A DNA stretch of 46,270 nucleotides, from the sequence record DRR378314_1470. The stretch is one strand, 5' to 3'. A program made the translations under genes and the position numbers. Of this stretch, positions 23,111-45,995 are shown one piece after another (position 1 is the stretch's first letter; every line of letters starts with the position of its first letter). A model generated the notes under the pieces. The model saw only the letters and a program-made list of their open reading frames with translations, did not search any database and was not told the DNA's origin.

Positions 23111-23142
23111 ACTTATCGGTTGGGCCCACTCACCCGACCACT

Positions 23143-23171: not shown

Positions 23172-23222
23172 CCCATCCAGTCACGAAGAATTGCGTCTTG
23201 TCGCTGGACGTTAATCGAATAA

Positions 23223-23239
23223 CCTACTATTTAAATCAG
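23223..23239. promoter_or_regulatory. Degenerate Iron-Rhodo-box-like site upstream of bfd
   Basis: CCTACTATTTAAATCAG, same 17-bp geometry as the irpA sites. Confidence 0.4.
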
Positions 23240-23264
23240 AAATACCTGAGCAGGCGGAGTCGCC

Positions 23265-23558: not shown

Positions 23559-23991
23559 ACTGACGGCAGTCAGCCAGTACTGGCTGCATTACCGTCTGCA
23601 GGAGGATTGGGGGCTTGGCCACATGGCCAAGAAAAGCCGCGAGGAATCCATCGAAGAGATGGGGCATGCGGACAAGCTAATAGAACGCATTATCTTTCTT
23701 GAAGGTCACCCCAACCTGCAAAAACTTGATCCCCTGCGGATCGGCCAGACACCGAAGGAAACCCTTGAATGCGATCTGGCCGCTGAAATTGATGCAAGAG
23801 CACTTTACAAGGAAGCGCGCGAATACTGCCGGGAAGCCGGTGATTATGTGTCGATGGCTCTGTTCGAGCAGTTGATGTCCGATGAAGAGGGACATATCGA
23901 CTTTCTCGAAACGCAGCTCGACCTCTATGAAAGGATCGGCGAAGCCAATTATGCGCAACTCAACGCATCAAAAATGGATGAGGGCGAGTAG
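23506..23991 (+). CDS. bfr: Bacterioferritin
   Basis: [53 protein letters not shown]. Confidence 0.96.
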
Positions 23992-25498: not shown

Positions 25499-25500
25499 CC

Positions 25501-26511: not shown

Positions 26512-26514
26512 TCC

Positions 26515-27704: not shown

Positions 27705-29594
27705 TTGAAACAGACGCCCGACGCACCGCATTCCATCTACGGGGTTGAGAAATGGGGCAAAGGCCTCATCGAGGTGACAGAGCAGGGCGAGATCGGTCTG
27801 CGCAACCCAATCGTGCCCGAAGCCCATGCAATCAGCCTGCCGGGTATTCTAAGCGATCTGGATGATCGGGGCATCAAGGCCCCGATGGTATTGCGCGTGA
27901 CCTCGTATCTGGAACACGAGATTACGCATCTGAACGAAAGCTTCCGCCAAGCCATCGACCGTGTGGGGTACAACGGCAAATATCGCGGCGTGTTCCCGAT
28001 CAAGGTAAACCAACAGGCGCAGGTGATCGACCGGATCGTCGAGTTTGGGAAGCAGTACAACTACGGCCTTGAAGCAGGATCAAAGCCCGAACTGGTAATC
28101 GCTCTGGCGCACCGTCTGGCCTCGGAAGCCCTGATTGTCTGTAACGGTGTTAAGGATGCCGAATTCATCCGGCTGGCCATCCTAAGCCGCAAGATTGGGT
28201 TCAACACGGTCATCGTTCTGGAAAGCCCGAAAGAGGCCGACACGGTGATCGAGGTCTATAACGAACTGAATATCGAACCCCTGATCGGCGTGCGGGTGAA
28301 ACTGACCAACCAGATCAGCGGTAAGTGGGAAGAAAGTTCAGGCGATCGCTCGGCTTTTGGCATGAACACCGACCAGCTTGTGGCCACAGTGGACAAGCTG
28401 AAAGCGGCAGGCCTGCTACATTGCCTGAAGCTGCAGCATTCGCATCTGGGTTCTCAGGTGCAGGATGTGAACGACGTTCGCCGCGCCGTGGGCGAGGCGT
28501 GCCGCTATTACACCGAACTGACCCGCGAGGGTGTGCCTCTAACCCATCTGGATCTGGGCGGCGGTATGGGCGTGGACTATACCGGTGAAAAGAAAGCGGC
28601 TGAGAATTCAATAAACTACACGGTCGAGGAATACTGCGCCAACGTGGTCGAAACTGTGGCCTATGCCATGGACGAGGCTGAAATCGCCCACCCGACGCTG
28701 GTCACCGAAAGTGGCAGGGCTGTGGTGGCAACCTCTTCGATGTTGGTATTCAACGTGCTGGAAACTACGCTCTACGACGCACCCAACGGACCTGAGGTTG
28801 AACCGGACGATCATCACATGGTCGCTGACCTCGCCGCCGTTCACAGCTATCTCAGCAAAGACCGCCTGCAGGAATGCTGGAACGACGCTGGCTTCTATCG
28901 CAACGAATTGCGCGCCCTATTCCGCCGCGGTTATGTTGACCTGCGCCAAATGGCGCGCGCCGAACGCATCTATCTGTCATTGATGGCCCGGCTCAAGGCG
29001 CTGGCCGCCAGTGATGATCTGGAAACAGATGTGGATGATCAGCTAGAGAAAGTCGCTGATATCTATCATTGCAACTTCTCTCTGTTCCAATCCCTTCCCG
29101 ATGTCTGGGCCATTGATCAATTGCACCCCATCGTGCCGCTGCAGGGTCTGAACGAAACACCCGACCGTCGCGCAGTCCTGTCTGACATCACCTGCGACAG
29201 CGATGGCAAGATCGATCGGTTCATTCTGGCCGATGGCGTCTCACCCAGTCTGCCCGTGCATTCCTTGCCCGAGGATCAGGAGTACTTGATGGGCGTCTTC
29301 TTCGTCGGGGCCTATCAGGAAACGCTGGGTGATCTGCACAACCTGTTCGGCGACACCAACGTCGTCACCATCGATCTGCGCCCTGATGGTGGCTTCGACC
29401 TGTTGCACGAGCAGGAAGGCGACACGATCAGTCAGGTTCTGTCTTACGTGGAATTCGACCCCAACGACTGCGTCGCCGCCTTCCGTAAAATGGTGGACGA
29501 GGCGATCTCGACCGGTACTCTGAAAGCCAAGGACCGCAAAACCCTGATGAGCGCCTATCGCGACTCAATCAACGGCTACACCTATTACGAATAA
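27705..29594 (+). CDS. speA: Biosynthetic arginine decarboxylase
   Basis: YGVEKWG, FPIKVNQ (PLP lysine), GLEAGSKPEL, CNGVKD, HLGSQ, DLGGG, TESGRA, NFSLFQSLPD.WAIDQ, DITCDSDG, GAYQE.LGDLHNLFG; TTG start after AAGGA. Confidence 0.93.
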   Translation: MKQTPDAPHSIYGVEKWGKGLIEVTEQGEIGLRNPIVPEAHAISLPGILSDLDDRGIKAPMVLRVTSYLEHEITHLNESFRQAIDRVGYNGKYRGVFPIKVNQQAQVIDRIVEFGKQYNYGLEAGSKPELVIALAHRLASEALIVCNGVKDAEFIRLAILSRKIGFNTVIVLESPKEADTVIEVYNELNIEPLIGVRVKLTNQISGKWEESSGDRSAFGMNTDQLVATVDKLKAAGLLHCLKLQHSHLGSQVQDVNDVRRAVGEACRYYTELTREGVPLTHLDLGGGMGVDYTGEKKAAENSINYTVEEYCANVVETVAYAMDEAEIAHPTLVTESGRAVVATSSMLVFNVLETTLYDAPNGPEVEPDDHHMVADLAAVHSYLSKDRLQECWNDAGFYRNELRALFRRGYVDLRQMARAERIYLSLMARLKALAASDDLETDVDDQLEKVADIYHCNFSLFQSLPDVWAIDQLHPIVPLQGLNETPDRRAVLSDITCDSDGKIDRFILADGVSPSLPVHSLPEDQEYLMGVFFVGAYQETLGDLHNLFGDTNVVTIDLRPDGGFDLLHEQEGDTISQVLSYVEFDPNDCVAAFRKMVDEAISTGTLKAKDRKTLMSAYRDSINGYTYYE

Positions 29595-29608
29595 AAGGAG
29601 ACGACCCC

Positions 29609-30820
29609 ATGGGAAAAACACTGGTTGTCGGCGCAGGTGGCGTATCCCACGCCGCTGTGCACAAGATGGCGATGAATTCGGACATCTTCACCGAAATCAC
29701 TCTGGCCAGTCGCACCAAATCGAAATGCGACACCATCGCCAAAGCGGTGAAGGAACGCGTGGGTGTTGATATCGCAACCGCTGAGCTAGACGCTTACAAG
29801 GTCGAAGACACGGTCAAACTGATCAAGGACACCGGCGCCGAGCTGCTCGTGAACCTTGCCCTGCCCTATCAGGATCTGGTGCTGATGGATGCCTGTCTTG
29901 AGGCTGGCATCCACTACCTCGACACCGCGAACTATGAGCCCGAGGATGAAGCCAAGTTTGAATACCATTGGCAGTGGGCCTATCAAGAGCGGTTCAAACA
30001 GGCCGGTCTGACCGCCATCCTCGGCTCGGGCTTCGATCCGGGCGTCACGTCCGTCTTCGCCACCTGGCTGAAGAAACACAAACTGGACACCATCCGCCAG
30101 ATCGACGTGCTGGATGCCAATGGCGGCTCAAACGATCAGGAATTTGCCACCAACTTCAACCCCGAGATCAACCTGCGCGAAGTGCTGGCAGAGGTCCGCC
30201 ACTGGGAAAACGGCGCGTGGCATACCAGTCCAGCGATGACCACAAAGGTCGAATACGACTTCCCCGCCATCGGCCAGAAGAACATGTATCTGATGTATCA
30301 TGAGGAGCTGGAATCGCTGTCGACCCACTTCCCCGAGATCGAGCGCGCCCGCTTCTGGATGACGTTCGGAGATGCCTATATCACCCATGCCAAAGTGCTG
30401 GAAAATGTCGGCATGACGCGCATCGACCCGGTGATGCATGACGGCCAGGAAATCATCCCGATCCAGTTCCTGAAAACCCTGCTGCCCGATCCCGGCGATC
30501 TGGGTGCGGAAACCAAGGGTAAGGCCTGCATCGGCGACATCGCCACAGGTCAGGCCAAAGACGGCTCGGGCGAGAAGACTTATTACATCTACAACATCTG
30601 CGACCACGAAGAATGCTACGCCGAGGTCGGATCACAGGCCGTCAGCTATACAACCGGCGTTCCGGCAATGATCGGTGCAGCCCAAGTGCTGAAGGGCAAC
30701 TGGACCAAGCCGGGTGTATGGAACATGGAACAGCTCGACCCGGACAACTTCATGGACATGCTCAACGAACACGGCCTTCCGTGGCAGGTCCACGAACTCG
30801 ACGGCCCCGTCGAATTCTGA
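29609..30820 (+). CDS. Carboxy(nor)spermidine dehydrogenase (saccharopine dehydrogenase family)
   Basis: GAGGV, NLALPYQDL..MDAC, YLDTANYEP, GSGFDPG, FATNFNPEINLRE, HEELESL, SYTTGVPAMIG. Confidence 0.9.
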   Translation: MGKTLVVGAGGVSHAAVHKMAMNSDIFTEITLASRTKSKCDTIAKAVKERVGVDIATAELDAYKVEDTVKLIKDTGAELLVNLALPYQDLVLMDACLEAGIHYLDTANYEPEDEAKFEYHWQWAYQERFKQAGLTAILGSGFDPGVTSVFATWLKKHKLDTIRQIDVLDANGGSNDQEFATNFNPEINLREVLAEVRHWENGAWHTSPAMTTKVEYDFPAIGQKNMYLMYHEELESLSTHFPEIERARFWMTFGDAYITHAKVLENVGMTRIDPVMHDGQEIIPIQFLKTLLPDPGDLGAETKGKACIGDIATGQAKDGSGEKTYYIYNICDHEECYAEVGSQAVSYTTGVPAMIGAAQVLKGNWTKPGVWNMEQLDPDNFMDMLNEHGLPWQVHELDGPVEF

Positions 30821-30830
30821 TCTGCTTCAG

Positions 30831-30878
30831 CTTCATCTGGCTAAAAATATCTCGGGGGTCCGGGGGCAGAGCCCCCGG
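30831..30878. repeat. Short intergenic REP-like element of a type I recall from Rhodobacteraceae
   Basis: CTTCATCTGGCTAAAAATATCTCGGGGGT followed by hairpin CCGGGGGC-AGA-GCCCCCGG; single copy in this window. Confidence 0.5.
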
Positions 30879-30904
30879 CCTCGCCCACTAAGGAGACGCC
30901 GGAC

Positions 30905-32074
30905 ATGTCCGACATGATGACCACACAGGCAGGCGACGCCGGGGCCTTCCGCGATTTTGATCTAAGTCGCGTGCCGTCCCCCTGCTTCGTGGTCAACGAA
31001 AAAGCGGTTGAACGGAACCTCCGCATCCTCTCCGAAATCGGTTCTCGGTCCGGCGCGCATGTCCTCAGCGCCCTCAAGGCGTTTTCCATGTTCTCGCTGG
31101 CGCCGCTGGTGCGTCAACATCTCGACGGCACTTGCGCCAGTGGCATCTACGAGGCCCGACTTGGCCGTGAGGAATATGGGGGCGAGGTCGCAACTTTCTG
31201 CGCCGGGTACAAAGACGCTGATATTGACGAAATCCTGTCGCTGTCCGACCACATCATCTTTAATTCATCGGCTCAAAAGGACCGGTTCGTCGAAAAGGCC
31301 CAAGCCGCAGGCGTTCAAGTTGGTCTGCGCATCAACCCGGAACATTCCGAAGGCGAGGTTCCCAAATATGACCCCTGTGCGCCGTGTTCACGTTTGGGAA
31401 CGCCTGTCAGCCAATTGACCCCCGACGCTCTGACCGGCGTGGATGGCCTGCATATGCACACCCTCTGCGAACAGGGGTTCGAGCCCTTGCAGCGCACATG
31501 GGCCGCTGTCGAACCAAAGCTCAGGCCATTCCTTGGTCAGATCAAATGGCTGAATTTCGGCGGTGGCCATCACATAACCCGCGACAACTATGACCGCGAT
31601 GGGCTGGTAGCCTTCATCAAGACCATCCGCGCCGAACACAATATCGACGTTTACCTTGAACCCGGAGAGGCCGTCGCACTGGATGCAGGTATTCTGGTCG
31701 GAGAAATCCTGGACCTGCCAACCAATGGCATGAACCTTGCGATCACCGACATCTCGGCCACCTGCCATATGCCCGACGTGATCGAAGCCCCTTATCGCCC
31801 TGCCCTGATGAATGAGACCGAAGCGGGCCACACGTACCGGCTGGGCGGTCCCTCCTGTTTGGCAGGCGATGTGATCGGGGATTACACTTGGGATATACCG
31901 CTGGAAATTGGCCAACGCTTTGCCTTTCTGGATCAGGCCCATTACTCGATGGTCAAAACCAATACTTTCAACGGTGTTCCCCTGCCGACCATCGCGCTGT
32001 GGAATAGCGAAACGGACGCGCTGAAGATCATCAAGCAGTTCAACTACGACGACTTCAAAGAGAGACTCTCATGA
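30905..32074 (+). CDS. nspC: Carboxy(nor)spermidine decarboxylase
   Basis: PSPCFV, ALKAFS (PLP lysine), GLRINPE, YDPCAP.SRLG, GLHMHTLCE, NFGGGHHIT, EPGEA, CHMPDV, CLAGD, YSMVKTNTFNG. Confidence 0.92.
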   Translation: MSDMMTTQAGDAGAFRDFDLSRVPSPCFVVNEKAVERNLRILSEIGSRSGAHVLSALKAFSMFSLAPLVRQHLDGTCASGIYEARLGREEYGGEVATFCAGYKDADIDEILSLSDHIIFNSSAQKDRFVEKAQAAGVQVGLRINPEHSEGEVPKYDPCAPCSRLGTPVSQLTPDALTGVDGLHMHTLCEQGFEPLQRTWAAVEPKLRPFLGQIKWLNFGGGHHITRDNYDRDGLVAFIKTIRAEHNIDVYLEPGEAVALDAGILVGEILDLPTNGMNLAITDISATCHMPDVIEAPYRPALMNETEAGHTYRLGGPSCLAGDVIGDYTWDIPLEIGQRFAFLDQAHYSMVKTNTFNGVPLPTIALWNSETDALKIIKQFNYDDFKERLS

Positions 32075-32913
32075 GCACTTTCCTCGACAGTGAACTTTCG
32101 GCCTCAGAACGCACTGAAGACGCCCGGTTCCACGTGATACCTGTGCCGCTTGAGCGCACGGTCTCCTACGGGTCTGGTACTGCTAAGGGCCCCGACGCCA
32201 TCATAGAGGCCAGCAACGAACTGGAACGCATCACTGGCCACGCCGAACCCTGCGTCGAGGGCATTTTCACCGAAGCGCCCGTCGATTGCGATGCCTCTCT
32301 GTCTGAGATCATGGAGCGCATCGCCCAGCGCACCGAGGCCGCCACCCGCGCGGGCAAAGTACCGGTCACGCTGGGCGGAGAGCATTCGCTCAGCTATGGT
32401 GCTGTGATGGGTGTGGCGCGCGCGCTTAATCAGCCTATCGGCATCGTTCAGATCGACGCCCATGCCGACCTGCGCAACGCCTATCAGGGTGAGAAACACT
32501 CTCACGCGTCGGTCATGCACCTGCTGGCCGAAGAAGGTATCCGTCTGGCGCAGTTCGGTGTCCGTGCCTTTTCGACCGAAGAAGCCCAAAGCCGCCTGAA
32601 AAACCATGTCTTCCACGTGGATGCCGAAGAACTTGTGACTGGCAACATCCACTCAGTCGACCTGCCCGATGATTTCCCCGAACTCATCTATGTCAGCTTT
32701 GATGTCGACGGTCTGGACCCATCGCAGATGCCTGCAACGGGCACACCTGTTCCGGGTGGGTTGGGTTACTATCAATCACTACGCCTCGTGGAACACGCCT
32801 TGAAGGGTCGCAGGTGCGTCGGTTTCGACGTGGTGGAACTGGCCCCCGATGGCAATGCCGCCTGGGATTTCACTGCGGCGCAGATCGTCTATCGCCTTAT
32901 GGCAGCCTGTTAA
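32071..32913 (+). CDS. speB: Agmatinase-type ureohydrolase
   Basis: GGEHS, DAHADLR, SHASVM, SFDVDGLDPS..PATGTPVPGG, FDVVELAP. Confidence 0.85.
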   Translation: MSTFLDSELSASERTEDARFHVIPVPLERTVSYGSGTAKGPDAIIEASNELERITGHAEPCVEGIFTEAPVDCDASLSEIMERIAQRTEAATRAGKVPVTLGGEHSLSYGAVMGVARALNQPIGIVQIDAHADLRNAYQGEKHSHASVMHLLAEEGIRLAQFGVRAFSTEEAQSRLKNHVFHVDAEELVTGNIHSVDLPDDFPELIYVSFDVDGLDPSQMPATGTPVPGGLGYYQSLRLVEHALKGRRCVGFDVVELAPDGNAAWDFTAAQIVYRLMAAC

Positions 32914-34798: not shown

Positions 34799-36214
34799 TT
34801 ACGACCGATCCCGTGTTGCAATCAGGATGCGATGATACCAAAGCCAGCGTAGAATACGGGCTGCGCGGTTGGTATCGAGCATATCAGACCAACGCGCACA
34901 GATGTCCAAACTCGTCGCGGGCCAGTCCAATCGACGCAACAAAGGACCCAGCGAGATCCCCTCCAGATTGGCGACTGGTCGAGGAAGGTTCGGGTGCGTG
35001 ACGACAAGACCGGGCTCGATACGAGAGGCAGCCTGCACGCCGGACCTGATCAGTTTTGCGGTCGGGGACAGGATCAAGGCCTGATCGTCGGGTAACATCT
35101 CGGGGTTCGGATCAGACTGGGACGACTGCAGCCAGTCCACCGGTTGCGCACGCTCGGCCCAAAAAGGTGAAGGATTATGGGCCTGCTGCCGTGCATAGAA
35201 ATCTGCGGCAAGCGCTGCATGGGTCTGAACACGCTCCGCCTGACGGTCGGCATAAAAAGACAAGGCCAGATCGCTATGTTCAGGTGTTTCCTGCAGCGTG
35301 TTCACCACAGCAGCGGCTTGCACAGCCTGCCCCATCGCCAGTTGCACCCCCTGCGATGACAAGGCGTCGACTGTGAAACTGGCTTCCCCCACCCGCAGAA
35401 GATCGTGCGCCGGAGGTGTTGTCTCGGCCCGGCTGGTCGCATCCGTGCGCCGCACGGGCCCGATCCGGCGCTGCTCTAGACAGGGCGACAGCAAAGGCGA
35501 TTGCGCCAGTAGGTTCAGATAAAGATCACGTCGCCCTGCAGGTGACAATCCGGTGCAGGTGTCAGGATTAACGAAAATCATCGCATTAACCACACCGCCG
35601 GGCAGAAGGGCACCCCAATACCAATGCGACGCCCCGGCCTCGACCCGCGCTTGTGGGCCAAAGCCCGGCGGCACCTGCCAATAGGCGTAAAGCGCCAGCA
35701 AGGGTTGGGAAGCTGCGCGAAACCGGCGTCCTAACCCGGCCTGCCGTCCGGCAGCATCGAGAAGGATCTGCGCCCGGATATGGAAGGCGTCCGTTTCGGT
35801 TCGGACCGGTATATTCCAACCAGATCGACCACGTATCGGGCGATATGCGCGCGCGGGCTGGACGATCTGAACACCCGCACCCTGCGCAGCCTGCAGAAGG
35901 ATCGCATCGAATTCGCCACGATCCACCAGAAGGCCGGGATTGTCACCATCAACTCCACGACGCTCAAACGCGCTGGCCCAATGTAGAATCGATCCGCTTG
36001 CACGTAGAAAGCCGGCGTGTGCGACGGGTTGATCAACCCCCAACAGCTTCAGGATCGGCCAGATCGAGGGGGGCAGAGATTCACCGACATGCTGGCGCGG
36101 AAACGGCTGGCGTTCAACCAGGCAGACACGGCGGCCCAGCTGCGCCAGTCTTAGCGCCACCGCGCTGCCTGCCGGTCCACCGCCAATCACGCAGATTTCG
36201 GCTTGTATCGTCAT
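34799..36214 (-). CDS. FAD-dependent monooxygenase, QhpG/LodB-like (putative Trp-modifying flavoprotein for CTQ biogenesis)
   Basis: Real start MTIQAEICVIGGGPAG at 36214 (the ORF-track extension overlaps the radical SAM gene); FPRQHVGESL, VDRGEFD..L, DAAGR, VGEASFTVDALSSQG, AAVVNTL...P....LA..FY..R...DFY......PFW..R. Confidence 0.78.
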   Translation of the reverse strand: MTIQAEICVIGGGPAGSAVALRLAQLGRRVCLVERQPFPRQHVGESLPPSIWPILKLLGVDQPVAHAGFLRASGSILHWASAFERRGVDGDNPGLLVDRGEFDAILLQAAQGAGVQIVQPARAYRPIRGRSGWNIPVRTETDAFHIRAQILLDAAGRQAGLGRRFRAASQPLLALYAYWQVPPGFGPQARVEAGASHWYWGALLPGGVVNAMIFVNPDTCTGLSPAGRRDLYLNLLAQSPLLSPCLEQRRIGPVRRTDATSRAETTPPAHDLLRVGEASFTVDALSSQGVQLAMGQAVQAAAVVNTLQETPEHSDLALSFYADRQAERVQTHAALAADFYARQQAHNPSPFWAERAQPVDWLQSSQSDPNPEMLPDDQALILSPTAKLIRSGVQAASRIEPGLVVTHPNLPRPVANLEGISLGPLLRRLDWPATSLDICARWSDMLDTNRAARILRWLWYHRILIATRDRS

Positions 36215-36218
36215 CGGG

Positions 36219-37529
36219 TCAGGCAGAGGCCGCCTGCGCGGACACGCCAAAATAGTCCGGGCGCGCTTCGGACAAGCGGACATAAGCCTGCAAGCAATGG
36301 TGCAACCAACCGCGAATATAATCGCAAGCGGGGCGTCCACGGTGGATGACTTCGTGATGACAACCGCCGCCACACAGATACCGAGCCCAACAGGTGTTGC
36401 AGGGGGATTGAGTGTGGACGTGTCGATCCGCCAGCCAGTTTTCGCGCCGCAGATCAGGGCCATCATAGACGTCGCCCATCGCTCCGGCCTCGTCCTCGAC
36501 AAAGCGATGGCAGGCGAACAACCCGCCATCGGCTGAAACGCCAAAATATCCACCACCTGCGCCGCAAGCATAGGGGCGGTGCGTGCCGCGGTGGATTTCC
36601 TGCATCGCCGCCGCCATATTCGAGAATGGATAGCGTCGCCCTTGGATCACCGCCGCCTCAAACACCTCACCACAACGGATCATCTGTGTCAGCATCTCGT
36701 CCAAATCGTTCCCGTCCAACTCATGCTGGCCGTTGGGCGACGCCAACATCGGTGAGAACCCGATCGAATGGAAACCCATCCCGACAAACCGATCCAGCGT
36801 TTCAGGCAGGTTCATGTTCTGCGGTGTGACCGTCACCCGGGCACCAACTTGCATGCGATGTTGTGCGGCCAGCAAAGGCTCGACCCTTTTCAGGATCGTA
36901 TCGAAACTGCCCCGCCCACCGCGATTTGGACGCAACTTATCATGCACCTCGCCCACACCATCCAGACTGATCGTGACGGCAAAGCCATGCGCTTCGAAAA
37001 AGGCAGCGTCCTCGGGGCGGAGCAAGGTGCCGTTGGTGGTGATCGAAAAGCCAACACTCAACCCGTTTGCTTGCGCCTGCTCTACTGCATAATCCGTAGT
37101 GCGCTGCACCAGATCGCGGTTAATCAAGGGTTCTCCGCCCAAATAGGCAAGGTTGATCCGTACGCCGGGCTCGGCCTCGGCCACCAGCCGATCGACCGAA
37201 GCTTTGGCGACCTCCCACTCCATATTCCTTGCAAGACCGCCAAATTCTCCGCCTGCCGCATAGCAATAGGTGCAGGCCAGATTGCATTTCTGCGCCACCG
37301 CCAACGACAGCGACCGCACCGGCATGTCCTGGGGTGGCGTATCGTCAATGAACGGCGTGCCGTCCAACCCCATCGACCTGAGGAAAGCGCTTTGGCCGGG
37401 CTGGTCCATCGACGCAAACTGATCCGCCGTTCCGCTGGGTACATCGAACACGCGCGAGCCATCAACGGCCAGCATATGGTCCCCATGCCCGCTGTCAAAA
37501 AAATGCACCTGCGCGGCGGGTGGAATCAC
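36219..37529 (-). CDS. Radical SAM/SPASM protein, QhpD/thioether-maturase-like
   Basis: CNLACTYC (CX3CX2C), GGEPL, TTNGTLL, ISLDG; SPASM CGAG...ACHRF...CNTCWARYLCGGGCHHE...C; GTGA overlap with the upstream stop. Confidence 0.88.
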   Translation of the reverse strand: MIPPAAQVHFFDSGHGDHMLAVDGSRVFDVPSGTADQFASMDQPGQSAFLRSMGLDGTPFIDDTPPQDMPVRSLSLAVAQKCNLACTYCYAAGGEFGGLARNMEWEVAKASVDRLVAEAEPGVRINLAYLGGEPLINRDLVQRTTDYAVEQAQANGLSVGFSITTNGTLLRPEDAAFFEAHGFAVTISLDGVGEVHDKLRPNRGGRGSFDTILKRVEPLLAAQHRMQVGARVTVTPQNMNLPETLDRFVGMGFHSIGFSPMLASPNGQHELDGNDLDEMLTQMIRCGEVFEAAVIQGRRYPFSNMAAAMQEIHRGTHRPYACGAGGGYFGVSADGGLFACHRFVEDEAGAMGDVYDGPDLRRENWLADRHVHTQSPCNTCWARYLCGGGCHHEVIHRGRPACDYIRGWLHHCLQAYVRLSEARPDYFGVSAQAASA

Positions 37530-39286
37530 GCCTTGCCCTCCGTCCAGAACGGAATGCCGATATTTTTGGCAGCCAGTGCTTCACCCTCGTCCCGGAACAG
37601 CTTCATGTCATCGCGCACCTGCTGAATAAAGGTTTGCGACTCTTCAAACTGGCCCTGAGCCTCCAGCGTATAGGCTTTGGCCAGCCCATCTTTGACCTTT
37701 GCATACAGATCAAGCGCCGTTTTGGCCTGCGCTTCAGTCCCGACCTCAATCGGGCGCAGATAGGCAGGTGTGCCCTCACCTGTGTCATATTTGGCCAGAA
37801 CGTCCTTCATCTGGCTGAAACGCAGGAAATGTTCATCGCCGTCCGTGTCAATCCGAACCGCCAGAGCGTACAGGCGACGTTCGGGGAACAAGTCCTCTTG
37901 CTCCAAGGTCGCCACGCATTGCGCATAAGCGCGGTCGATGTAACCGCCAGGGCGCTCGATCTCGATGAAATCCGCAAGGGCTTCGGCGGTTAAGGGACGA
38001 AGCGCGCGCGGCTGCGTCTTACCTCTGCCCGCTGGCAGGGTTTCAGACGGGGTCAGTATGGGCTCGTAATTCTCAGGCTCAAGTTCCCACAGCAGCTGGT
38101 TGGCCCAGCGCATATGGGTCATCTCGCCAATCGCGACCTCCAGAACCGAACGTCGGGCAAAGATCAGATCATCCTTCAGCGTCGGCCATTTCTTGGTATC
38201 CGCCGTATCGGGATCGGCCAGAGAGAAATAGGCATAGAGATATTGCAGGCTCAACGTCATTTCCATCGCAGCCAGACGGGTCCTGAGGTCCTTGATCATC
38301 TCCTCGGGCGTATCGTATGGCTCAACGCCCGGCATTTCGGGATCGACCTCATAAACCTCGCCGGTCTCACGGCCTTCGACCACAATTGGCAGCTCGCTCC
38401 ACATCTGGTTCACCTGATAGTGGTCGATCTGATAAGGGCGGTTCTGTTCCACTGTATTCAGTGCCGCCACATTGCCCGATGGCGACTTGTCCGAGCGTAG
38501 CCAGTCCAGATATGTCTCAGCCTCGATCGGGTTCTTCGACTGGCCCGAGGGCAGCTGATCGTCATGGGCCACCTCGGCCATCACCACGTCAGGGTGGTTC
38601 GAGGGCCAGTAGTGGCAGCCGCAGTCGCGAAAATCATGGGACCACGGGTTGCACAGGCTCTGCGTCAGTTCACCGGGATCATAGGCTTCGCTGAACACAC
38701 CCGCTTCGGTCCGGTACTGGCGTCGGAAACCGTGCAAGACAACTTGTTCAGTATCCACAACCCCTTCGTGATTGCGCCGCTCCAGAGCGATGCTGACCGG
38801 TTTGTCATCACCGTGTTCCAGACTGCGGATAAAACGCCAGATCATCAAGCCATCATAGGGCGTGCCGTCTTCCTCTTTGAAAGTGATCCGCTTGCCGCTT
38901 TGTTCAACCCATGACAGGAACCAGCGCCCCTGGCTGAGCTTTGCGCCCACCTCGCCACTATAGGCCTCCAGCAAGGTCTGCACCCAATCCTCGGTGCTGT
39001 TATCGGGCAGCATCGGGTCGTAGAAATAGTCGACGAATACCAGATGGAAGCCCTGCGAATTCTTCGGCGCTTCGGGCACAGGGCTGAGCGGAACACGCAC
39101 AGCGTTGAACACCAGACCGGGAAAGAAACGCCGGTCGAGGTTGCGCACGTCCATTTCCAGACCGGGAAAGCAATTGCCCACCGATCCGTCCAGACGCGTG
39201 TTATCGGGGTTGCCCGGCACCTTGTAAGCCGCACGAGCGGTCAGGTTACGGGGTGTGACGCGGATTTGGCCGGGTTGATCAGACAT
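37526..39286 (-). CDS. LodA/GoxA-like C-terminal (CTQ-bearing) domain fused to a ferritin-like domain
   Basis: Start MSDQ at 39286 with GGAGG SD; GNCFPGLE, PGELTQSLCNPWSHDFRDCGCHYWPSNHPDVV, MWSELPIVV; then ferritin-like LAAMEMTLSLQYLYAYFSL...IGEMTHMRWANQLL...FIEIERP...DGDEHF. Confidence 0.75.
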   Translation of the reverse strand: MSDQPGQIRVTPRNLTARAAYKVPGNPDNTRLDGSVGNCFPGLEMDVRNLDRRFFPGLVFNAVRVPLSPVPEAPKNSQGFHLVFVDYFYDPMLPDNSTEDWVQTLLEAYSGEVGAKLSQGRWFLSWVEQSGKRITFKEEDGTPYDGLMIWRFIRSLEHGDDKPVSIALERRNHEGVVDTEQVVLHGFRRQYRTEAGVFSEAYDPGELTQSLCNPWSHDFRDCGCHYWPSNHPDVVMAEVAHDDQLPSGQSKNPIEAETYLDWLRSDKSPSGNVAALNTVEQNRPYQIDHYQVNQMWSELPIVVEGRETGEVYEVDPEMPGVEPYDTPEEMIKDLRTRLAAMEMTLSLQYLYAYFSLADPDTADTKKWPTLKDDLIFARRSVLEVAIGEMTHMRWANQLLWELEPENYEPILTPSETLPAGRGKTQPRALRPLTAEALADFIEIERPGGYIDRAYAQCVATLEQEDLFPERRLYALAVRIDTDGDEHFLRFSQMKDVLAKYDTGEGTPAYLRPIEVGTEAQAKTALDLYAKVKDGLAKAYTLEAQGQFEESQTFIQQVRDDMKLFRDEGEALAAKNIGIPFWTEGKA

Positions 39287-40952
39287 TCTGAGCCTCCGAT
39301 TCCTGTGCAACCAGATAGTCGATGAACGAGATCACCAGATGATACTGCCTGCGCGACAGCGACAGCGGGTAGTAATTGGAATCGCGCATATAAGGCGGCA
39401 TCCGCGCGTCGTGCATCGAGTCGCGGATGATGCGTGGATCACGAAAATCTGGATTGGGGTCTTGATCCGGGTTCGGGTCGGTCTCAAGCTCCGTCAGGAT
39501 GCCATAAGGCGGGCGCAACAGAGTTTTTACGAAATCCGGACGACGGCGTAGGAAGTCAAGCAGGTTCGCCTCGTCAATCAGTTGTTCATGCACGAATTTG
39601 GTCGCTACCGTATAGGGCAACCGGTCATTGGGCACCGAATTCGAAAAGACCGAGACTGGCTGCGGGCGGATCAGCTCATCAATCTTGTCCGGCGGCCTTA
39701 CGTCCTTTTCTGTCATCGAGGCCGCATCGGTCGACGGTAGACCCGGTGTTGGGGAAATTCCGGTCTTCGCCTGTAGCTTGGCATTATCCTTCAGACCCTG
39801 CGCACGAATATCGTCGAGGTTGATCAGGCTGTTGGTCTCGAACGCGCGGCGGAAGATATCGACCACTTCGTTTTTGGCCTGCTGGTAATTATCTTCGGTT
39901 ACCGAAATCAGCGACAGATCGCGGTCGGCCAGATCATCCTCAAGGCTGTAGAACGGCCTTGCATCAGGCGCGAAATCGGGCGGGCCAGTCATGATCTGCG
40001 CACGCGCGGTCAAACGCTCACCGCGCACGGCCAGCGTCGCCTCGATCACACCATCGCTGGTGTCATCGGCCACGCCCCAGGATTGGTCGTTGCCCACCCG
40101 CGCGCCATCATAGCTGTCATGTGGTTCAGGATCGTCCGAGGTGCCAGACATCATGATCCATTTCGACCATGGAGTGTCGGGGTTCAGGATGCGGTTCTGC
40201 TCGGGCACGATTTCATGGATGCGACCATATTCCGATTTCGGCGGGTCGTTCTGGTATCCTGGCACCGCGAGAGTGGCAGGGCCATAAGCCGCATCGGGTG
40301 GGCCATAAACCTCACCTTTCGGGGGCAGGAAGCGCAAGCGCAGGATGCTGCGATCGATGAATTCGCCTTCCACCGGTTCATCATGTCCCTGTACCGGATG
40401 GATCGCGCGGACCGAACCTAGCGGGATCGGATTATGTTCATAGACCATCGGCTGCTGTTCGGACGTGTACGGACTGAAGGCCAACAGGGGCTTGGGTGTG
40501 AAATCCTGCCCTGCAATCTCGACCCGTGCACGAAAACCGCAGGCTGCGTCTCCGGTCCGACGCTCGGCCTTGGTGTTCCCGACAGTGACTGAATAGCGCA
40601 CGTTCTGCAGCGACAAGCCCTGATCGTCGAGTAGGTCCAGCGTCACCGGCGTCTCATATATTTCGCCCGTCTCAGCGTCGTGCATCCGCGCCCAAAGCTC
40701 AAAGAACGGCGCAACCGGCCGCAACGCACCGCCTTCGTCACGAAAGCGGATCGTGTCGGGATCGGGAAGGCAGGCGGTAACGCTGCCATCTTCGACTTCG
40801 CGCAGGGTTATGTTCGAGCGGATGACCGTCTTGTTGTTGCCATGGGCATCCAAATCCTGCTGCCACTCATAACTTTCTAGCGGTGTTTCACCCGGTCCCA
40901 AACGGGCAACCGCAATGGGTGGCAGAAAGAAAATCTCCTGAATCGTGTCCAT
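39279..40952 (-). CDS. LodA/GoxA-like N-terminal/core region as a stand-alone protein
   Basis: PPIAVARLG (LodA HPxIGxARxG-like), WGVADDTSDG.I.A (DDxSDG), GPPDFAP, MPPYMRD...LSLSRRQY at the C-terminus; lacks the D-x3-C and WP cofactor motifs. Confidence 0.72.
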   Translation of the reverse strand: MDTIQEIFFLPPIAVARLGPGETPLESYEWQQDLDAHGNNKTVIRSNITLREVEDGSVTACLPDPDTIRFRDEGGALRPVAPFFELWARMHDAETGEIYETPVTLDLLDDQGLSLQNVRYSVTVGNTKAERRTGDAACGFRARVEIAGQDFTPKPLLAFSPYTSEQQPMVYEHNPIPLGSVRAIHPVQGHDEPVEGEFIDRSILRLRFLPPKGEVYGPPDAAYGPATLAVPGYQNDPPKSEYGRIHEIVPEQNRILNPDTPWSKWIMMSGTSDDPEPHDSYDGARVGNDQSWGVADDTSDGVIEATLAVRGERLTARAQIMTGPPDFAPDARPFYSLEDDLADRDLSLISVTEDNYQQAKNEVVDIFRRAFETNSLINLDDIRAQGLKDNAKLQAKTGISPTPGLPSTDAASMTEKDVRPPDKIDELIRPQPVSVFSNSVPNDRLPYTVATKFVHEQLIDEANLLDFLRRRPDFVKTLLRPPYGILTELETDPNPDQDPNPDFRDPRIIRDSMHDARMPPYMRDSNYYPLSLSRRQYHLVISFIDYLVAQESEAQNV

Positions 40953-40991
40953 GCTGGGCCCTCCCCCGTTTGGCCTTGGCTGCCCCCGCTT

Positions 40992-42557
40992 TCAGGGGTT
41001 CGAATATGTCTCATAAGTGATAGTCGGGTCGTCGAAGATCGATTTCGACTTGTCTCGAATAATATCCGCCGGCGCGTCATCGGGCACGGGCGAGATGCTT
41101 TGCTGGTAGTGAAAGAAATTGTTCGGATCGAATTTCTGCTTCACGAACAGTAGCGAGTTGAAATACTCGCCCCAATATTGCCAGCGATAGTTCAACTGCG
41201 TCCGGCGCGGATAGTTTTGATAAACCCGGTCGATGAAATAGCCCTCATCGGTCATCAGCGCCATGAACCCGTCAAGCCAGGGCACAACTGTCTCTTTTTC
41301 CTCTTCGGACAGCCAGAATACATCGACATAGAAGTTCAGTGACACATCGCGATGAATAAAAGCGTTGCCATCTTTACCCAAAGGCATCCGGTTGATCGCC
41401 CCGCCATAAGGTTCGATCGCGACAGCACCATAGGCATTGGGCGTACTGTCGAGGTAATCGACCACGCGCTGCCATTCCGCCGTGCTAAGCTGGCGTTTGA
41501 TGTACCCGGCCTGTTTATCCTCTCGCGCCTGATCGGGCACAACAGGGATGTCGTATTTATCGTCATAGAGCCACGAGTTGATTTCCTGATAGGTGCCATA
41601 GTTCTGATCATCCTCACCCATCTCACCGGCGATTTCATCGCTGAGCAAGGGCTGGACAAACGCATCACCTTCTTGAGGCGTGCCATCATAAAGCGCTGAA
41701 AGCAGCAGCACCTTCTTGTCCCCCTGATAGGCCAAGAAAATATACGCACCAAACCTGTCATCTTTGCAGGTGCTCATGTAATTGGCCTGCAGAAACTCCA
41801 GCGCTTTTGCGGCTTTGTCTAGCGGCCATGTGATGTGGCAACCCCAGACCTTATATAGCGGATGCAGCTGATAACGAATTTCCAGCAGAATACCAAAGTT
41901 GTTACCCGTTCCGCCCCGGATCGCCCAAAACAAATCAGGGTTTGTATCCTTGTCCGCGATTACAATGCTGCCATCCCACAGCATCACGGTGACGCCCAGC
42001 ACATTGTCGCACGCCATTCCAAAACGGCGCGAGGTAAAGCCATATCCGCCGCCCATCATGAAGCCTGCAACACAGACATCCAGACATGCCCCGCCGGGCA
42101 CATGAAGATGATAGGAATTCAGAATCGAGTTCAACATTTTGAACGGCGTGCCCGGCCCCACATAGGCCATCGGCACATCCGGATCGACGCTCACATAGCG
42201 CATCTTGCTGGTGTCCAGCACCATCTGGTTGTTGACCGAATACCCTGCCGTGCTGTGCCGCCCTGATCGCGCCACAACCCAAAGCTCGTGTTCGCGGGCA
42301 AAAGCAAGACTGGCGCGTACATCGTCAATGGTTTCACAATAGACGATGATTTCAGGATAATCCTGAAACGCCGGGTTCCAGACTTGTCGGTCATTGTTGT
42401 ATTCAGCGTCGGTGGGCAGGGTGACCGTTCCGATCAGCTTTTTCTCAAAGGCGCGTATCTGCTCGGGCGAGATCGAATGATATTGCTGCAGCGTCAGATC
42501 GGTGCGGCTTTGCGCCAGGATATCTTTGGCCAGAAGGGTTTTGCTGATCTTACGCAT
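40992..42557 (-). CDS. BBE-like FAD-linked oxidase (FAD_binding_4 plus BBE domains)
   Basis: ARSGRHS (covalent-FAD His), PGGACLDVCVAGFMMGGGYG, DLFWAIRGG..NNFGI, YQNYP...YWG...VKQKFDPNNFFHYQQSI. Confidence 0.88.
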   Translation of the reverse strand: MRKISKTLLAKDILAQSRTDLTLQQYHSISPEQIRAFEKKLIGTVTLPTDAEYNNDRQVWNPAFQDYPEIIVYCETIDDVRASLAFAREHELWVVARSGRHSTAGYSVNNQMVLDTSKMRYVSVDPDVPMAYVGPGTPFKMLNSILNSYHLHVPGGACLDVCVAGFMMGGGYGFTSRRFGMACDNVLGVTVMLWDGSIVIADKDTNPDLFWAIRGGTGNNFGILLEIRYQLHPLYKVWGCHITWPLDKAAKALEFLQANYMSTCKDDRFGAYIFLAYQGDKKVLLLSALYDGTPQEGDAFVQPLLSDEIAGEMGEDDQNYGTYQEINSWLYDDKYDIPVVPDQAREDKQAGYIKRQLSTAEWQRVVDYLDSTPNAYGAVAIEPYGGAINRMPLGKDGNAFIHRDVSLNFYVDVFWLSEEEKETVVPWLDGFMALMTDEGYFIDRVYQNYPRRTQLNYRWQYWGEYFNSLLFVKQKFDPNNFFHYQQSISPVPDDAPADIIRDKSKSIFDDPTITYETYSNP

Positions 42558-42680: not shown

Positions 42681-45600
42681 TCAAGTAGCCGTTTCCAACA
42701 ACGCCCGCGCATCTATTAGATCCGCCTGATCCGCGTCCGGTTCGAAATGAGACAATGCATCGCGCAAGGCTTCGCCCGCTGGCTCTCCACGGCTCTGCCG
42801 CCAACGTGTCAGTGCTATGGCCGCGCGCAATTCGTACAGGCGTGCCCCCTGCCTTTGCGCCGTTTTGATTGACTGCAACAGCAAAGGTTCAGGGTCGCCA
42901 CCGGTATTGGCGACAAAGGTGGCTTCGATTCGTAGCTGCTCGGCTTCGGCCCATTTCTCTTCGGTTTCGGACAACATTTGGGCAGCGTGCGATAAAGTCT
43001 GCTCAGCCGCCTTATGATCACCCGCGTTGATTAGAAGCTCGGCGATCAGAGACGGGAAGAAACACTTATAGTTTCCTGCCCCAACGGCCCACCAGTCTTC
43101 CGAGGCTTGGCGCAAACTATCAATATGGGTGATATCAGAGGATTCTGTCGCCTTTGCCCAGCTTTCCCACAATCGCGCAATGGTGGCCATGAAGGGCAAC
43201 GAATGCTCTTCGGCGACCTTGGACAGAGCTTCGACATCTTGCTGCAACGCCGGGATGTCGCGGGCCAACAGGTGAACCTTGCACATATAGACCAGAATCT
43301 GGGCCACGCTGTGAGCGTGCTTCAGATCCTTTGCCCAGTCCAACGCGGTACGCTGAACCTGCAAGGCTTCCTGGTGCCGCCCCATCAGGCAATAACACGT
43401 CCCCAGAAAGGCCGATGTAATGGCGGCGTGATCTGTACCGTAGACATAGGCCAACTGGCTGTGTTGATCGAAATCGTACAACGACCAGGCTTGTTCAAGG
43501 TGTGTCTTCGCCTCGGGCAGATTGCCCAGATGCAATTGCACCGCACCCATCGCGCGATGGCCAACCATCCGATGCTCGGTCCTGCCGCTTTCCGCAGCCA
43601 GATCAAGTATCTGTGACGATACGTCTTGCGCCAAACGATATTCCGCGCGCACCAGATGGAAGGCATAAAGCCCATTGAGAACAGGGAACAGTCTGTCGGT
43701 CTCATCCGCGCGATGGCAGAGATCGCGCAGGCGGCCATAGGCCTCGCCCGTGGCATCCCCTGAGATTCCGCTGGTCGAGCGCAGAACACCCGCCCGCAGG
43801 ATCTGGATGTCGATCTCCTGCAGATCACGGTCTCGGCTCTTGGGCAGGTCTGCCAATTGGTCCAAAGCCGTTGATAGATGCGTCAGCGCCTCGGTCTGGG
43901 CCGAGCGTTCAATGGCCCGCTGCCCTGCACTTTGCCAATGCAAGACAGCCTCATCTGCGCGCTGGGCCAAGGTGTAATGCTGCGCAAGAACTTCGGGCTG
44001 CGTCTGGGCAAGCTGAGGTTGGTTTTCCAGCAATGCGCCTGCTGCACGGTCATGCAATACCTGCCGTTCCGTGCGCAGCAGACTGTCATATGCCATGTCT
44101 CGGATCAAAGCGTGGCGGAAGATGAATTCATCTTCTGCCTCATCGGGCGCCTGAAGGATGATACCGGCTGAAGAAAGCTGCTCTAGCCCAGCTTGCAAAA
44201 CCGTCGGAGACAGAAACGACACCGAGGCCAGCAGCGCGATGGAAAATTGTCGGCCGAAGACGGCACCAGTTTGTGCCACTTCTTTGGCTTTGCCCAAACG
44301 ATCCAGACGCTCCATCAGCGAGTCCTGCAGCGTACTGGGAACAGAAAGTGATGGCAGCGGCCCACGCAGGGCATATCCTTCATCGGTCAGCCGCAACTGC
44401 CCCGATTCCAGCAAGCCACGCGTGACTTCCTGAATAAAAAGCGGGATGCCGTCGGTTTTGGCTGCAATCAGATCGCAAACCTCGGGCGGCACCAAATTCC
44501 CTCCGGCCACTTCCGCCACGATCTCAGCGACGTCCCGATGTTCCAGACGTCTGAGCGGCAGATGCAGTGTATTGTTGTGATGCCCCCAACCTGGATCAAA
44601 GCCGGGACGTGCCGTCACAACAATAAGCACCGGCAATTCCCGAATGCGTTCAATCACCCGGTCGGTCAAAGACAAAGTGGTCGGATCAACCCAGTGGGCA
44701 TCCTCAAACAACAACAATACAGGCTTATCACGCGCCAGCGCGGCAAGTTGTTCAGTCACCGCTTCCAGCGTCTGCTCAAGCTTTGCCTGCGGCGGCAGGT
44801 CAAGTGGCCCAAGTGCTGCGTCCGCTTCGACGCTCAGCAAATCGGCGATAAGACGCACATGTTCGGGCGGGTGGTGACGCAGGAGATGCGACAGCTTTCC
44901 GAGTTTATCCTCGTCACCGTCCGATGGTGCGAACCCTGCCGCACGTTCCAGATGTTGAATGATGGGATAGAGCGCGGAATTGGCGTGAAACGGAGAGCAT
45001 TGGAAATTCAGCCTTAGCGCGCCCTGATCCTGCACCTCCTGGCTCAGCCCTTCGATCAGGCGCGATTTACCAATCCCAGCCTCACCTGAAATCAGCACAG
45101 ATTGGCCTGCACCCTGACACGCCTCGTGCCATTTGTCGGTCAGCTTGCGAAACTCGGCCTGACGCCCGACAAGTCGCCCCGCCCCCGCATCCGGCATGAT
45201 GTCAAATCTACGTTCGATACGGGCCTGCCCCGTCACGATCCAGGCTTGAACCTGTTCCGAGAATCCCTTGAGTGCGAATGATCCCCGATCCCGAAGCTCG
45301 AATGCATTGCCAATCAACCTGCGGGTTGAAGGGCTGATGATCAGGGTATTGGGCTCGGCCAGCCCCTGCAGGCGAGCGGCCAGATTGGGCGTGCGCCCCA
45401 TGACCACATCATGTTCTTTCAACCCTTCGCCATGGATCTCACCAACCACGACGAGGCCGGTCGACACACCGATCCTTGCGCTCAGCTTTTCCTCACCTTC
45501 GATGAGGGTCAGCCCGTCCAGAATATCCAGACCTGCATGAACAGCCCGCGAGGCCGCATCTTCAACTGCGTGAGGGTAGCCGAAATAAATCATCGCCCCA

Positions 45601-45995
45601 TCGCCCATGAAGCTCGCGATATGTCCGCCAAACCGAGCTACCGAAGTCGAACAGATTTCTTTGAACCGGCGCAGCAGCTCACCCAGATCTTCAGGGTCCA
45701 GACGCTCCGACAGGGCCGTCGAACCAACGAGATCCACAAACATCACAGTCAATTGACGGCGCTCGGCCACGATCTTGCCGCTGCCCTGAACGGGTGTCGG
45801 GTTTGCATCTCGTGCCCGCCCCAAGGCCGCCATCAGCCGCCGCCTCGGCCCCAATGGAAGACCCAAGTCGATGAGATCATGTTCGGTCAGGTGTCCCAGA
45901 TCAGTCAGAGAAACTTCGTTCGAAGCAAAAACGGGCGCAAACTTCGACAGTCCAAGGTCTTCAAGAAATGTGTCGATCTCTGCCATTATCCCCAT
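42681..45995 (-). CDS. SAM domain + class III adenylate/guanylate cyclase + STAND AAA ATPase + TPR-like protein
   Basis: SAM (FLEDLGL..FAPVF...DLIDLGLPLGPRRRL); ERRQLTVMFVDLVGST, MGDG, TPNLAARLQ; Walker A GEAGIGKS; Walker B LLLFEDAHW; GIPLF; C-terminal ELRAA. Start may be ATG 45986. Confidence 0.9.
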   Translation of the reverse strand: MGIMAEIDTFLEDLGLSKFAPVFASNEVSLTDLGHLTEHDLIDLGLPLGPRRRLMAALGRARDANPTPVQGSGKIVAERRQLTVMFVDLVGSTALSERLDPEDLGELLRRFKEICSTSVARFGGHIASFMGDGAMIYFGYPHAVEDAASRAVHAGLDILDGLTLIEGEEKLSARIGVSTGLVVVGEIHGEGLKEHDVVMGRTPNLAARLQGLAEPNTLIISPSTRRLIGNAFELRDRGSFALKGFSEQVQAWIVTGQARIERRFDIMPDAGAGRLVGRQAEFRKLTDKWHEACQGAGQSVLISGEAGIGKSRLIEGLSQEVQDQGALRLNFQCSPFHANSALYPIIQHLERAAGFAPSDGDEDKLGKLSHLLRHHPPEHVRLIADLLSVEADAALGPLDLPPQAKLEQTLEAVTEQLAALARDKPVLLLFEDAHWVDPTTLSLTDRVIERIRELPVLIVVTARPGFDPGWGHHNNTLHLPLRRLEHRDVAEIVAEVAGGNLVPPEVCDLIAAKTDGIPLFIQEVTRGLLESGQLRLTDEGYALRGPLPSLSVPSTLQDSLMERLDRLGKAKEVAQTGAVFGRQFSIALLASVSFLSPTVLQAGLEQLSSAGIILQAPDEAEDEFIFRHALIRDMAYDSLLRTERQVLHDRAAGALLENQPQLAQTQPEVLAQHYTLAQRADEAVLHWQSAGQRAIERSAQTEALTHLSTALDQLADLPKSRDRDLQEIDIQILRAGVLRSTSGISGDATGEAYGRLRDLCHRADETDRLFPVLNGLYAFHLVRAEYRLAQDVSSQILDLAAESGRTEHRMVGHRAMGAVQLHLGNLPEAKTHLEQAWSLYDFDQHSQLAYVYGTDHAAITSAFLGTCYCLMGRHQEALQVQRTALDWAKDLKHAHSVAQILVYMCKVHLLARDIPALQQDVEALSKVAEEHSLPFMATIARLWESWAKATESSDITHIDSLRQASEDWWAVGAGNYKCFFPSLIAELLINAGDHKAAEQTLSHAAQMLSETEEKWAEAEQLRIEATFVANTGGDPEPLLLQSIKTAQRQGARLYELRAAIALTRWRQSRGEPAGEALRDALSHFEPDADQADLIDARALLETAT

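Follow-up and report, generated by a model that had tools for sequence, protein, structure and literature searches.

In the marine Ruegeria DNA analyzed here (sequence record DRR378314_1470; the whole stretch of 46,270 nucleotides is called the window), five genes on the minus strand, g1 to g5, belong to a conserved cassette that is best read as encoding a new, predicted class of quinoprotein of the cysteine tryptophylquinone (CTQ) type, combining a LodA scaffold with maturation in the style of QhpC, the gamma subunit of quinohemoprotein amine dehydrogenase (QHNDH). As judged from sequence comparison and structural modeling, the product of g2 and g3 is probably a distant relative of the LodA/GoxA quinoprotein oxidases, in most cases made of two chains, and a predicted CTQ enzyme with a cofactor segment built like QhpC. 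That a LodA scaffold is joined in this locus to machinery of the QhpD and QhpG kind had been proposed in a first-pass annotation of the same DNA; the proposal is supported by the invariance in g3 of the Cys, Trp and Asp residues of the LodA cofactor, by a QhpC-type pattern of Cys and acidic residues, and by the grouping of g5 with QhpG.

Among public loci the nearest is L001, with an identity of 99-100%. The five genes are co-oriented, with intergenic spacings, in order from g1 to g5, of 39, -8, -4 and 4 nt, and their coordinates agree with those first reported. The flanking space amounts to 123 nt upstream of g1 and 72 nt downstream of g5, and with gaps of these sizes the cassette has no space for a small precursor-peptide gene. 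The start of g3 was placed at the ATG at 39286, which agrees with the lengths of its homologues, and that of g5 at an ATG 8 residues upstream of the GxGxxG motif. The features are as follows.

40992-42557, minus strand: g1, 521 amino acids, EncM/BBE-like flavoenzyme linked to flavin adenine dinucleotide (FAD), of the VAO/PCMH type; accessory
39279-40952, minus strand: g2, 557 amino acids, putative N-terminal half of a LodA/GoxA-like fold
37526-39286, minus strand: g3, 586 amino acids, putative C-terminal portion of the LodA-like unit, carrying the cofactor segment, in fusion with a ferritin-like domain
36219-37529, minus strand: g4, 436 amino acids, GTG start, radical SAM/SPASM protein, nearest QhpD
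34799-36214, minus strand: g5, 471 amino acids, QhpG-family FAD monooxygenase
42681-45995, minus strand: cyclase-STAND gene, 1104 amino acids, accessory regulator candidate
38588-38671, minus strand: predicted cofactor segment, g3 residues 206-233, C212-x-P-W-x-H-D218-x-x-D-C222-x-C224-x-Y-W227-x5-D233
39149-39175, minus strand: N-terminal motif, g3 residues 38-46, N-C39-x-P-G-x-E44-x-D, candidate third thioether pair
37544-38323, minus strand: ferritin-like four-helix-bundle domain, g3 residues 322-581, candidate dimetal ligands E342, E388, H391, E444, D482 and H486

LodA-like chains and the predicted cofactor segment

The assignment of g2 as the N-terminal half of the LodA fold is supported by its predicted structure and by profile comparison. 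Its AlphaFold2 (AF2) model had a predicted local distance difference test (pLDDT) score of 84, and the top Foldseek matches of this model were LodA (3wev/3weu/2ymw) and GoxA, with E-values of 3e-10 to 5e-8. Alignment by VIA placed residues 6-550 of g2 on residues 2-423 of LodA (Z 13.2, root-mean-square deviation 4.1, 324 residues aligned), and unrelated immunoglobulin-like structures reached a Z of 8.7 at most. The structural resemblance to LodA implied by the first-pass annotation was indeed found for g2.

Both halves were then compared at the profile level with a reference set of 12 canonical, one-chain LodA-like proteins, collected from 401 genomes of the phylum. In hhalign the g2 family matched this set with a probability of 97.4% (E 1.1e-11, 276 columns) and the g3 family with a probability of 91.3% (E 9.4e-7, g3 residues 196-304, 91 columns), the identity in these profile alignments being about 20%. 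Among the sequences of the PDB, all 11 that were matched by the g2 profile were LodA or GoxA, with weak E-values; the g3 profile matched three, two of them LodA/GoxA and again weak, the best of the three being heme oxygenase 2 (E 0.36). Throughout the single-sequence and profile searches of PDB sequences with g2 and g3, the LodA/GoxA matches were weak, at E 0.13-1.9. A search of the ESM Atlas with g3 residues 1-330 gave no usable match, and the 688 homologues of g3 found in databases were either unnamed or called 'ferritin-like'.

A complex prediction of g2 with residues 1-330 of g3 gave a median of 0.43, against 0.25 for one control; the margin is below 0.20 and counts neither way on binding. 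The evidence used for association of the two chains is instead the existence of fused forms: g2+g3 chains of 1107-1255 amino acids were present in 26 clusters, two of which were checked. Thus, the description of the protein as split is correct for the two genes of the window and for the usual state of the family, although it is not universal. In the close relative Ruegeria sp. HKCCA6707 (locus L008), g2 and g3 form one protein of 1143 amino acids (P0241) with both matches in the same frame, so that a single genus includes both split and fused forms.

The cofactor motif of g3 aligns with residues 496-521 and 579-597 of LodA, and in this alignment Cys222, Asp218 and Trp227 of g3 occupy the positions of LodA Cys516, Asp512 and Trp581. 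In LodA itself the CTQ is formed from Cys516 and Trp581, with Asp512 as the aspartate close by. All three g3 residues were kept without exception in 81 database homologues and in all 75 genomic open reading frames (ORFs). Three further Cys residues are each followed by an acidic residue, giving the pairs Cys39/Glu44, Cys212/Asp218 and Cys224/Asp233; the latter two pairs were likewise invariant in the 75 genomic ORFs, while among the sequences having the N-terminal part, Cys39 was kept in 72 of 72 and Glu44 in 71 of 72. About 168 residues separate the first of these pairs from the second. A second Trp, W215, is also invariant, as are H217, Y226 and H231. In the canonical LodA-like proteins that fitted the search pattern (nine of the 12), neither an extra Cys at the g3 places nor an Asp six residues past the Trp was found in any of the nine. 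The spacing from the cofactor Cys to the Trp is 5 in g3, 11-33 in these nine proteins and 65 in LodA.

The arrangement in g3 was compared with that of QhpC, using sequences from 11 loci (L105-L115) with the 28-residue leader removed. The invariant Cys, Asp, Glu and Trp residues of this set lie at positions 7, 16, 27, 33, 37, 41, 43 and 49. According to two reports, they pair as the thioethers Cys7-Glu16, Cys27-Asp33 and Cys41-Asp49 and as the CTQ pair Cys37-Trp43 (PMC8172795, PMC7876137). The spacing of 6 from Cys212 to Asp218 in g3 equals that from Cys27 to Asp33 in QhpC; the spacing of 4 from Asp218 to Cys222 equals that from Asp33 to Cys37; and the spacing of 6 from Trp227 to Asp233 equals that from Trp43 to Asp49. 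The Cys39...Glu44 motif resembles the QhpC segment with Cys7...Glu16, in a non-significant hhalign match (E 0.069). The hhalign comparisons of QhpC with g3, non-significant as they are, still yield the same residue pairing.

In a separate comparison, the QhpC profile matched the cofactor region of the canonical LodA-like proteins with an E-value of 1.4e-4 (hhalign probability 52.7%, 48 columns). At the level of sequence profiles, this hints that the QhpC gamma subunit and the C-terminal region of LodA may share one CTQ module. It was also observed that in one of the QhpC loci (L109:709-1725, minus strand, genome G402) the qhpC frame continues for 338 amino acids into ABC-transporter-ATPase-like sequence, which could stem from a frameshift or from misassembly, or be a fusion.

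Candidate maturases and conservation of the cassette

The product of g5 scored 316.6 bits against the NCBIfam QhpG model NF049967, above its cut-off of 240 and covering model positions 1-423, while its score against the LodB model was 128.8 bits, below the cut-off of 400. Its best solved relative was QhpG itself (7ctq, peptidyl tryptophan dihydroxylase, E 8.4e-27). As described in earlier work, QhpG hydroxylates the Trp within the Cys41-Asp49 ring, its product being the dihydroxy-Trp precursor of CTQ; QhpG reportedly also aids QhpD, in a ternary complex with QhpC (PMC7876137). A flavoenzyme tree was built from 24 cassette g5 sequences, six canonical QhpG and 10 LodB-like proteins from canonical loci. 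The LodB-like proteins fell on one side, split from g5 plus QhpG with an SH-aLRT support of 90; QhpG formed a clade (support 100) lying among the g5 groups, and the g5 proteins of the cyanobacterial and Bryobacterales form of the cassette formed a separate, deep clade. Since this tree came from a quick search and was rooted only at its midpoint, no direction of descent is claimed for g5 and QhpG.

The g4 protein matched Pfam Radical_SAM with 64.6 bits (cut-off 29.5) and carries a CxxxCxxC motif at residues 82-89 (C82-x3-C86-x2-C89). The best of its 66 NCBIfam matches was QhpD (TIGR03906, 309 bits over model positions 76-463, below the cut-off of 453), with PapB second (271 bits) and the SCIFF maturase at 218 bits, and it was 33-36% identical to eight canonical QhpD proteins. 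Its best solved relative was the thioether-forming CteB (5wgg, E 1e-51); the alignment with CteB extends to residue 391, and the C-terminal Cys motifs of the SPASM region are present in the translation. Of the two candidate maturases, g5 thus passes the cut-off for QhpG and falls together with that family in the tree, and g4 is nearest to QhpD yet below its cut-off. Action of a radical SAM enzyme on a protein has precedent, since SPASM radical SAM thioether crosslinks in methanogen proteins are described in a 2026 paper (PMC13692751).

A radical SAM ORF of 505 amino acids, 27% identical to g4 over 193 residues, was also noticed in one of the canonical loci (L125:1029-2546, plus strand), about 2.4 kb from the lodB-like/lodA-like pair and on the opposite strand to it.

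Conservation of the cassette was analyzed by a scan for the g3 motif, with one genome per species, in which 211 relatives were confirmed and 80 loci were kept, some of them only 2-6 kb long. ORF clustering of these loci recovered g2 in 75, g3 in 75, g4 in 74 and g5 in 69; a gene arrangement that recurs in 69-75 of 80 loci is not due to chance. The loci came from Pseudomonadota (55), Cyanobacteriota (8), Acidobacteriota (7), Actinomycetota (5), Myxococcota (3) and unknown phyla (2), and the neighborhood comparison thus established that the cassette is kept elsewhere, in five phyla. Its presence is nonetheless patchy, since g3 was detected at E <=1e-20 in only two of 201 genomes (one per genus) of the family of the nearest genome. 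No other conserved ORF of at least 40 amino acids was found by clustering in the 80 loci. Among the 40 largest ORF clusters, those other than the cassette genes lie inside cassette genes on other frames, as judged by representative coordinates, with the exception of LptF, which occurs in 13 loci taken as Ruegeria-type.

Gene order varies. In 27 loci, g1-g2-g3-g4-g5 is followed by the cyclase gene on the opposite strand; 11 loci have the same order as the window; and nine, from cyanobacteria and Bryobacterales, have an opposite-strand g5 followed by g2-g4-g3. These comparisons support g2-g5 as the core that travels together. Of the five genes first annotated as the set, all are present as stated, but g1 is accessory, being found in 52 of the 80 loci. 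The limits originally drawn for the cassette were also too narrow, as the cyclase-STAND gene (42681-45995), lying beyond them, belongs to it in 54 of 80 loci.

Ferritin-like domain, accessory genes and surroundings

The C-terminal half of g3 matched the Pfam ferritin-like family PF12902 with 45.9 bits (cut-off 22.3). By VIA, residues 322-581 were superimposed on the ferritin-like protein CC_0557 of Caulobacter vibrioides (3hl1) with a Z of 19.4-19.6 over 223-225 residues, and on bacterioferritins and Dps with a Z of about 12. Residues E342, E388, H391, E444 and H486 were invariant in 75 of 75 sequences, and position 482 was Asp or Glu in all 75. In the AF2 model these candidate dimetal ligands sit on the helices 327-355, 370-402, 434-444 and 470-500; the last ligand motif is D-x3-H and not E-x2-H. 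By sequence, therefore, this half of g3 appears to hold a full dimetal ligand set.

Stand-alone PF12902 proteins encoded beside canonical lodA-like genes have residues that align with E342, E388xxH391 and E444 of g3, whereas for the fourth-helix ligands D482 and H486 no aligned counterpart was found; in g3, moreover, the domain is fused to the predicted quinoprotein. Such a stand-alone gene lies directly upstream of the canonical lodA-like gene in two of 12 loci, and a tyrosinase gene precedes it in two of 12; the loci of these PF12902 and tyrosinase genes are L086:2275-3672 (minus strand), L087:69-1412 (plus), L090:25-1464 (plus) and L091:12-1472 (plus). VioB carries a domain of the uncharacterized family PF12902, and CC_0557 is encoded next to a lodA-like gene. 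The ferritin link is new only in part, as a 2015 survey already records PF12902 genes adjoining lodA-like genes, in that case fungal ones (PMC4417212).

Of the accessory genes, g1 matched Pfam FAD_binding_4 (96.4 bits) and BBE (37.1 bits), and its best solved relative was EncM (E 2.8e-48). The cyclase-STAND protein contains the Pfam domains SAM_1, Guanylate_cyc (class III nucleotidyl cyclase), AAA_16 (STAND ATPase) and TPR, and is TIGR03903-like (519 bits, below the cut-off of 705.75); its homologues adjoin the cassette on either side and either strand. Both genes are missing from the nine loci with the g5(-)-g2-g4-g3 form (L054, L056-L058, L062, L063, L069, L076 and L077).

Elsewhere in the window, genes for an arginine decarboxylase, a saccharopine-dehydrogenase-like protein, an Orn/DAP/Arg-decarboxylase-like protein and an arginase-family protein lie beside the cassette at 27705-32913 (plus strand). 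They were considered as a clue to the substrate and rejected, as these polyamine genes neighbor the cassette only in Ruegeria-type loci. A further run at 21073-27603 has the appearance of a cluster for metal uptake; it comprises ZrgA, two imelysins with a di-haem oxidoreductase (DHOR) between them, and DUF1513.

Competing explanations and significance

Several observations weigh against a CTQ enzyme matured in the QhpC manner. The Pfam and NCBIfam LodA models stay under threshold for both chains: g2 scored 17.8 bits against LodA_N (cut-off 26.3), g3 19.5 bits against LodA_C over residues 199-234 (cut-off 25), and the NCBIfam LodA/GoxA models NF038172 (18.3 against 600 bits) and NF038173 (14.2 against 750 bits) were not reached. 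Fold searches with the whole g3 model match the ferritin domain only and are uninformative about the relation of residues 1-320 to the C-terminal half of LodA. Comparison of QhpC by hhalign was non-significant both with the whole g3 family (E 0.17, in the wrong region) and with g3 sub-regions (E 0.27, 0.069 and 0.49), and the parallel therefore rests on residue positions matched after both sequences had been seen. The parallel is also inexact, the third Cys lying 3 residues ahead of the Trp in g3 and 2 in QhpC, and the spacing of Cys39-Glu44 being 5 as against 9 for Cys7-Glu16. No evident cleavable leader is present in g3 and no protease in the cassette, and the four clustered invariant Cys residues could alternatively form a metal-binding site. 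As for the maturases, g4 is under the QhpD cut-off, its first ~57 residues are unaligned with QhpD, and Pfam finds in it Radical_SAM and Fer4_12 only; in the alignment of g5 with 7ctq, Arg47 and Arg70 of QhpG are apparently not kept. Lastly, AF2 is unsure exactly at the cofactor motif: pLDDT is below 50 at g3 residues 1-43, 213-216 and 223-232, the stretches with the Cys39 motif and the cofactor motif. Such low model confidence fits a segment shaped by crosslinks, but proves nothing.

Some of these points would suit an explanation in which g3 is indeed modified by g4 and g5, yet into something other than CTQ. Another cofactor derived from Trp or from crosslinking could arise, for instance a Trp that is hydroxylated or oxidized to a quinone but lacks the bond to Cys, crosslinks of a different radical-SAM kind, or a cofactor held jointly with the dimetal site, and the chemistry may then differ from amine oxidation. 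We consider this unlikely. The g4 protein is nearly as close to the PapB, nif11 and SCIFF maturases as to QhpD, QHNDH has nothing that corresponds to the fused dimetal domain or to the EncM-like g1, g3 has additional invariant residues (W215, H217, Y226 and H231), and at about 20% identity the g2/g3 family is very remote from LodA. What speaks for CTQ nevertheless is that the exact CTQ triad of LodA is invariant in g3, and that g5 exceeds the cut-off for QhpG, a family whose known product is the dihydroxy-Trp CTQ precursor (PMC7876137). A small-molecule pathway is quite unlikely as well. Here g2/g3 would be an unmodified enzyme with a metal-binding Cys cluster, and the target of g4, g5 and g1 would be a metabolite, or a peptide whose gene lies outside the cassette, in parallel with pathways of the amino-acid-oxidase/VioB type, the PF12902 domain processing an imine. 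Indeed, some sources call g3 homologues 'iminophenyl-pyruvate dimer synthase domain' proteins, the nearest match to g1 is EncM, a biosynthetic oxygenase, PF12902 and tyrosinase genes adjoin canonical lodA-like genes, and g3 has its four clustered invariant Cys. However, neither biosynthetic core genes nor a conserved small ORF were found in the 80 loci, g1 is missing from 28 of them while g4 and g5 stay with g2/g3, and the closest families of g4 are all maturases of proteins or peptides; the g5 family, too, is described as acting on peptidyl Trp (PMC7876137).

It is highly improbable that g4 and g5 mature a conventional QHNDH encoded elsewhere and merely adjoin g2/g3, even though NCBIfam would name g5 QhpG. 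The nearest genome (G001; 99% complete), which contains the cassette with a 99% identical g3, stood in for the window's own genome. In this genome QhpC (PF08992) was not found over the cut-off (best 13.7 bits, E 0.25), the QhpA heme domain (PF09098) had no match, and the only strong QhpD-like and QhpG-like matches were those of the cassette itself, the next best scoring 23 and 50 bits. The scanned ORFs of the window gave no Pfam family expected of QhpA, QhpB, QhpE or QhpF, in agreement with the absence of these genes first noted, and none of the four was conserved in the 80 loci, the search for the QhpB, QhpE and QhpF families being of the window and these loci and not genome-wide in G001. Moreover, the linkage of g4 and g5 with g2/g3 extends across five phyla, and canonical qhp loci have QhpD and QhpG beside qhpC.

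The predicted CTQ enzyme would combine traits of systems that are otherwise separate. With LodA/GoxA it shares the N-terminal-half fold in g2, a profile-level relationship of both halves, the CTQ Cys, CTQ Trp and aspartate kept in g3, and an adjacent flavin monooxygenase gene; it differs in usually comprising two chains, in its fused ferritin-like domain and three extra invariant Cys, in the added radical SAM gene, and in having a flavoenzyme of the QhpG and not the LodB type. The cassette resembles QHNDH (QhpABC with QhpD/E/F/G) in its QhpG-family monooxygenase and its QhpD-like radical SAM/SPASM enzyme, and the g3 segment keeps the QhpC residue order of Cys...Asp, CTQ Cys, Cys, Trp and Asp. 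In contrast to QHNDH, it lacks a small leader-bearing gamma subunit, the cofactor segment lying inside the 586-residue g3, and a dimetal domain would take the place of the hemes. The ranthipeptide/SCIFF maturases (CteB, PapB) are relatives of g4, but they act on short leader-bearing peptides, and a short peptide gene of that kind was not found in the cassette. A 2025 review of protein-derived cofactors lists three CTQ enzymes only, namely QHNDH, LodA and GoxA (PMC11951088). No description of the present arrangement was found in the full-text literature, subscription journals not being covered, which bears out the first-pass annotation on this point.

We infer the quinone, the thioethers, the activity and the cytoplasmic location of the g2/g3 enzyme, and maturation may proceed as follows. 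The radical SAM protein g4 would make Cys-to-Glu/Asp thioethers in g3; g5 would then dihydroxylate Trp227 inside the Cys224-Asp233 ring; Cys222 would add to the indole, oxidation giving cysteine tryptophylquinone; and g3 with g2 would oxidize a primary amine or amino acid. More tentatively, the dimetal domain might pass electrons from the reduced quinone to O2, or handle peroxide or product, g1 might act on the substrate or product, and the cyclase-STAND protein might have a regulatory role. A bolder form of this proposal, possible but rather doubtful at present, is that the protein is a fourth kind of CTQ enzyme and the missing link of two lineages, with a LodA scaffold whose loop is stapled by radical-SAM thioethers as in QhpC, and the first protein to combine a quinone with a dimetal site. 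If true, QhpC and the large LodA/GoxA oxidases would descend from one CTQ module, a ferritin-like site within the enzyme, and not hemes, would receive the electrons of the quinone, and a radical SAM maturase would act on a protein of ~65 kDa without a cleavable leader.

CTQ enzymes are made by two routes that look unrelated, and a family uniting the LodA scaffold with the QhpD/QhpG route would offer an explanation of their relationship that can be tested. It would also add a large protein to the peptides known as substrates of thioether-forming radical SAM enzymes, and would give a role to the uncharacterized PF12902 ferritin-like proteins that recur beside lodA-like genes. Finally, it would add a new, probably intracellular, amine or amino-acid oxidase to the biology of marine Roseobacteraceae, Bradyrhizobium, cyanobacteria and soil phyla.

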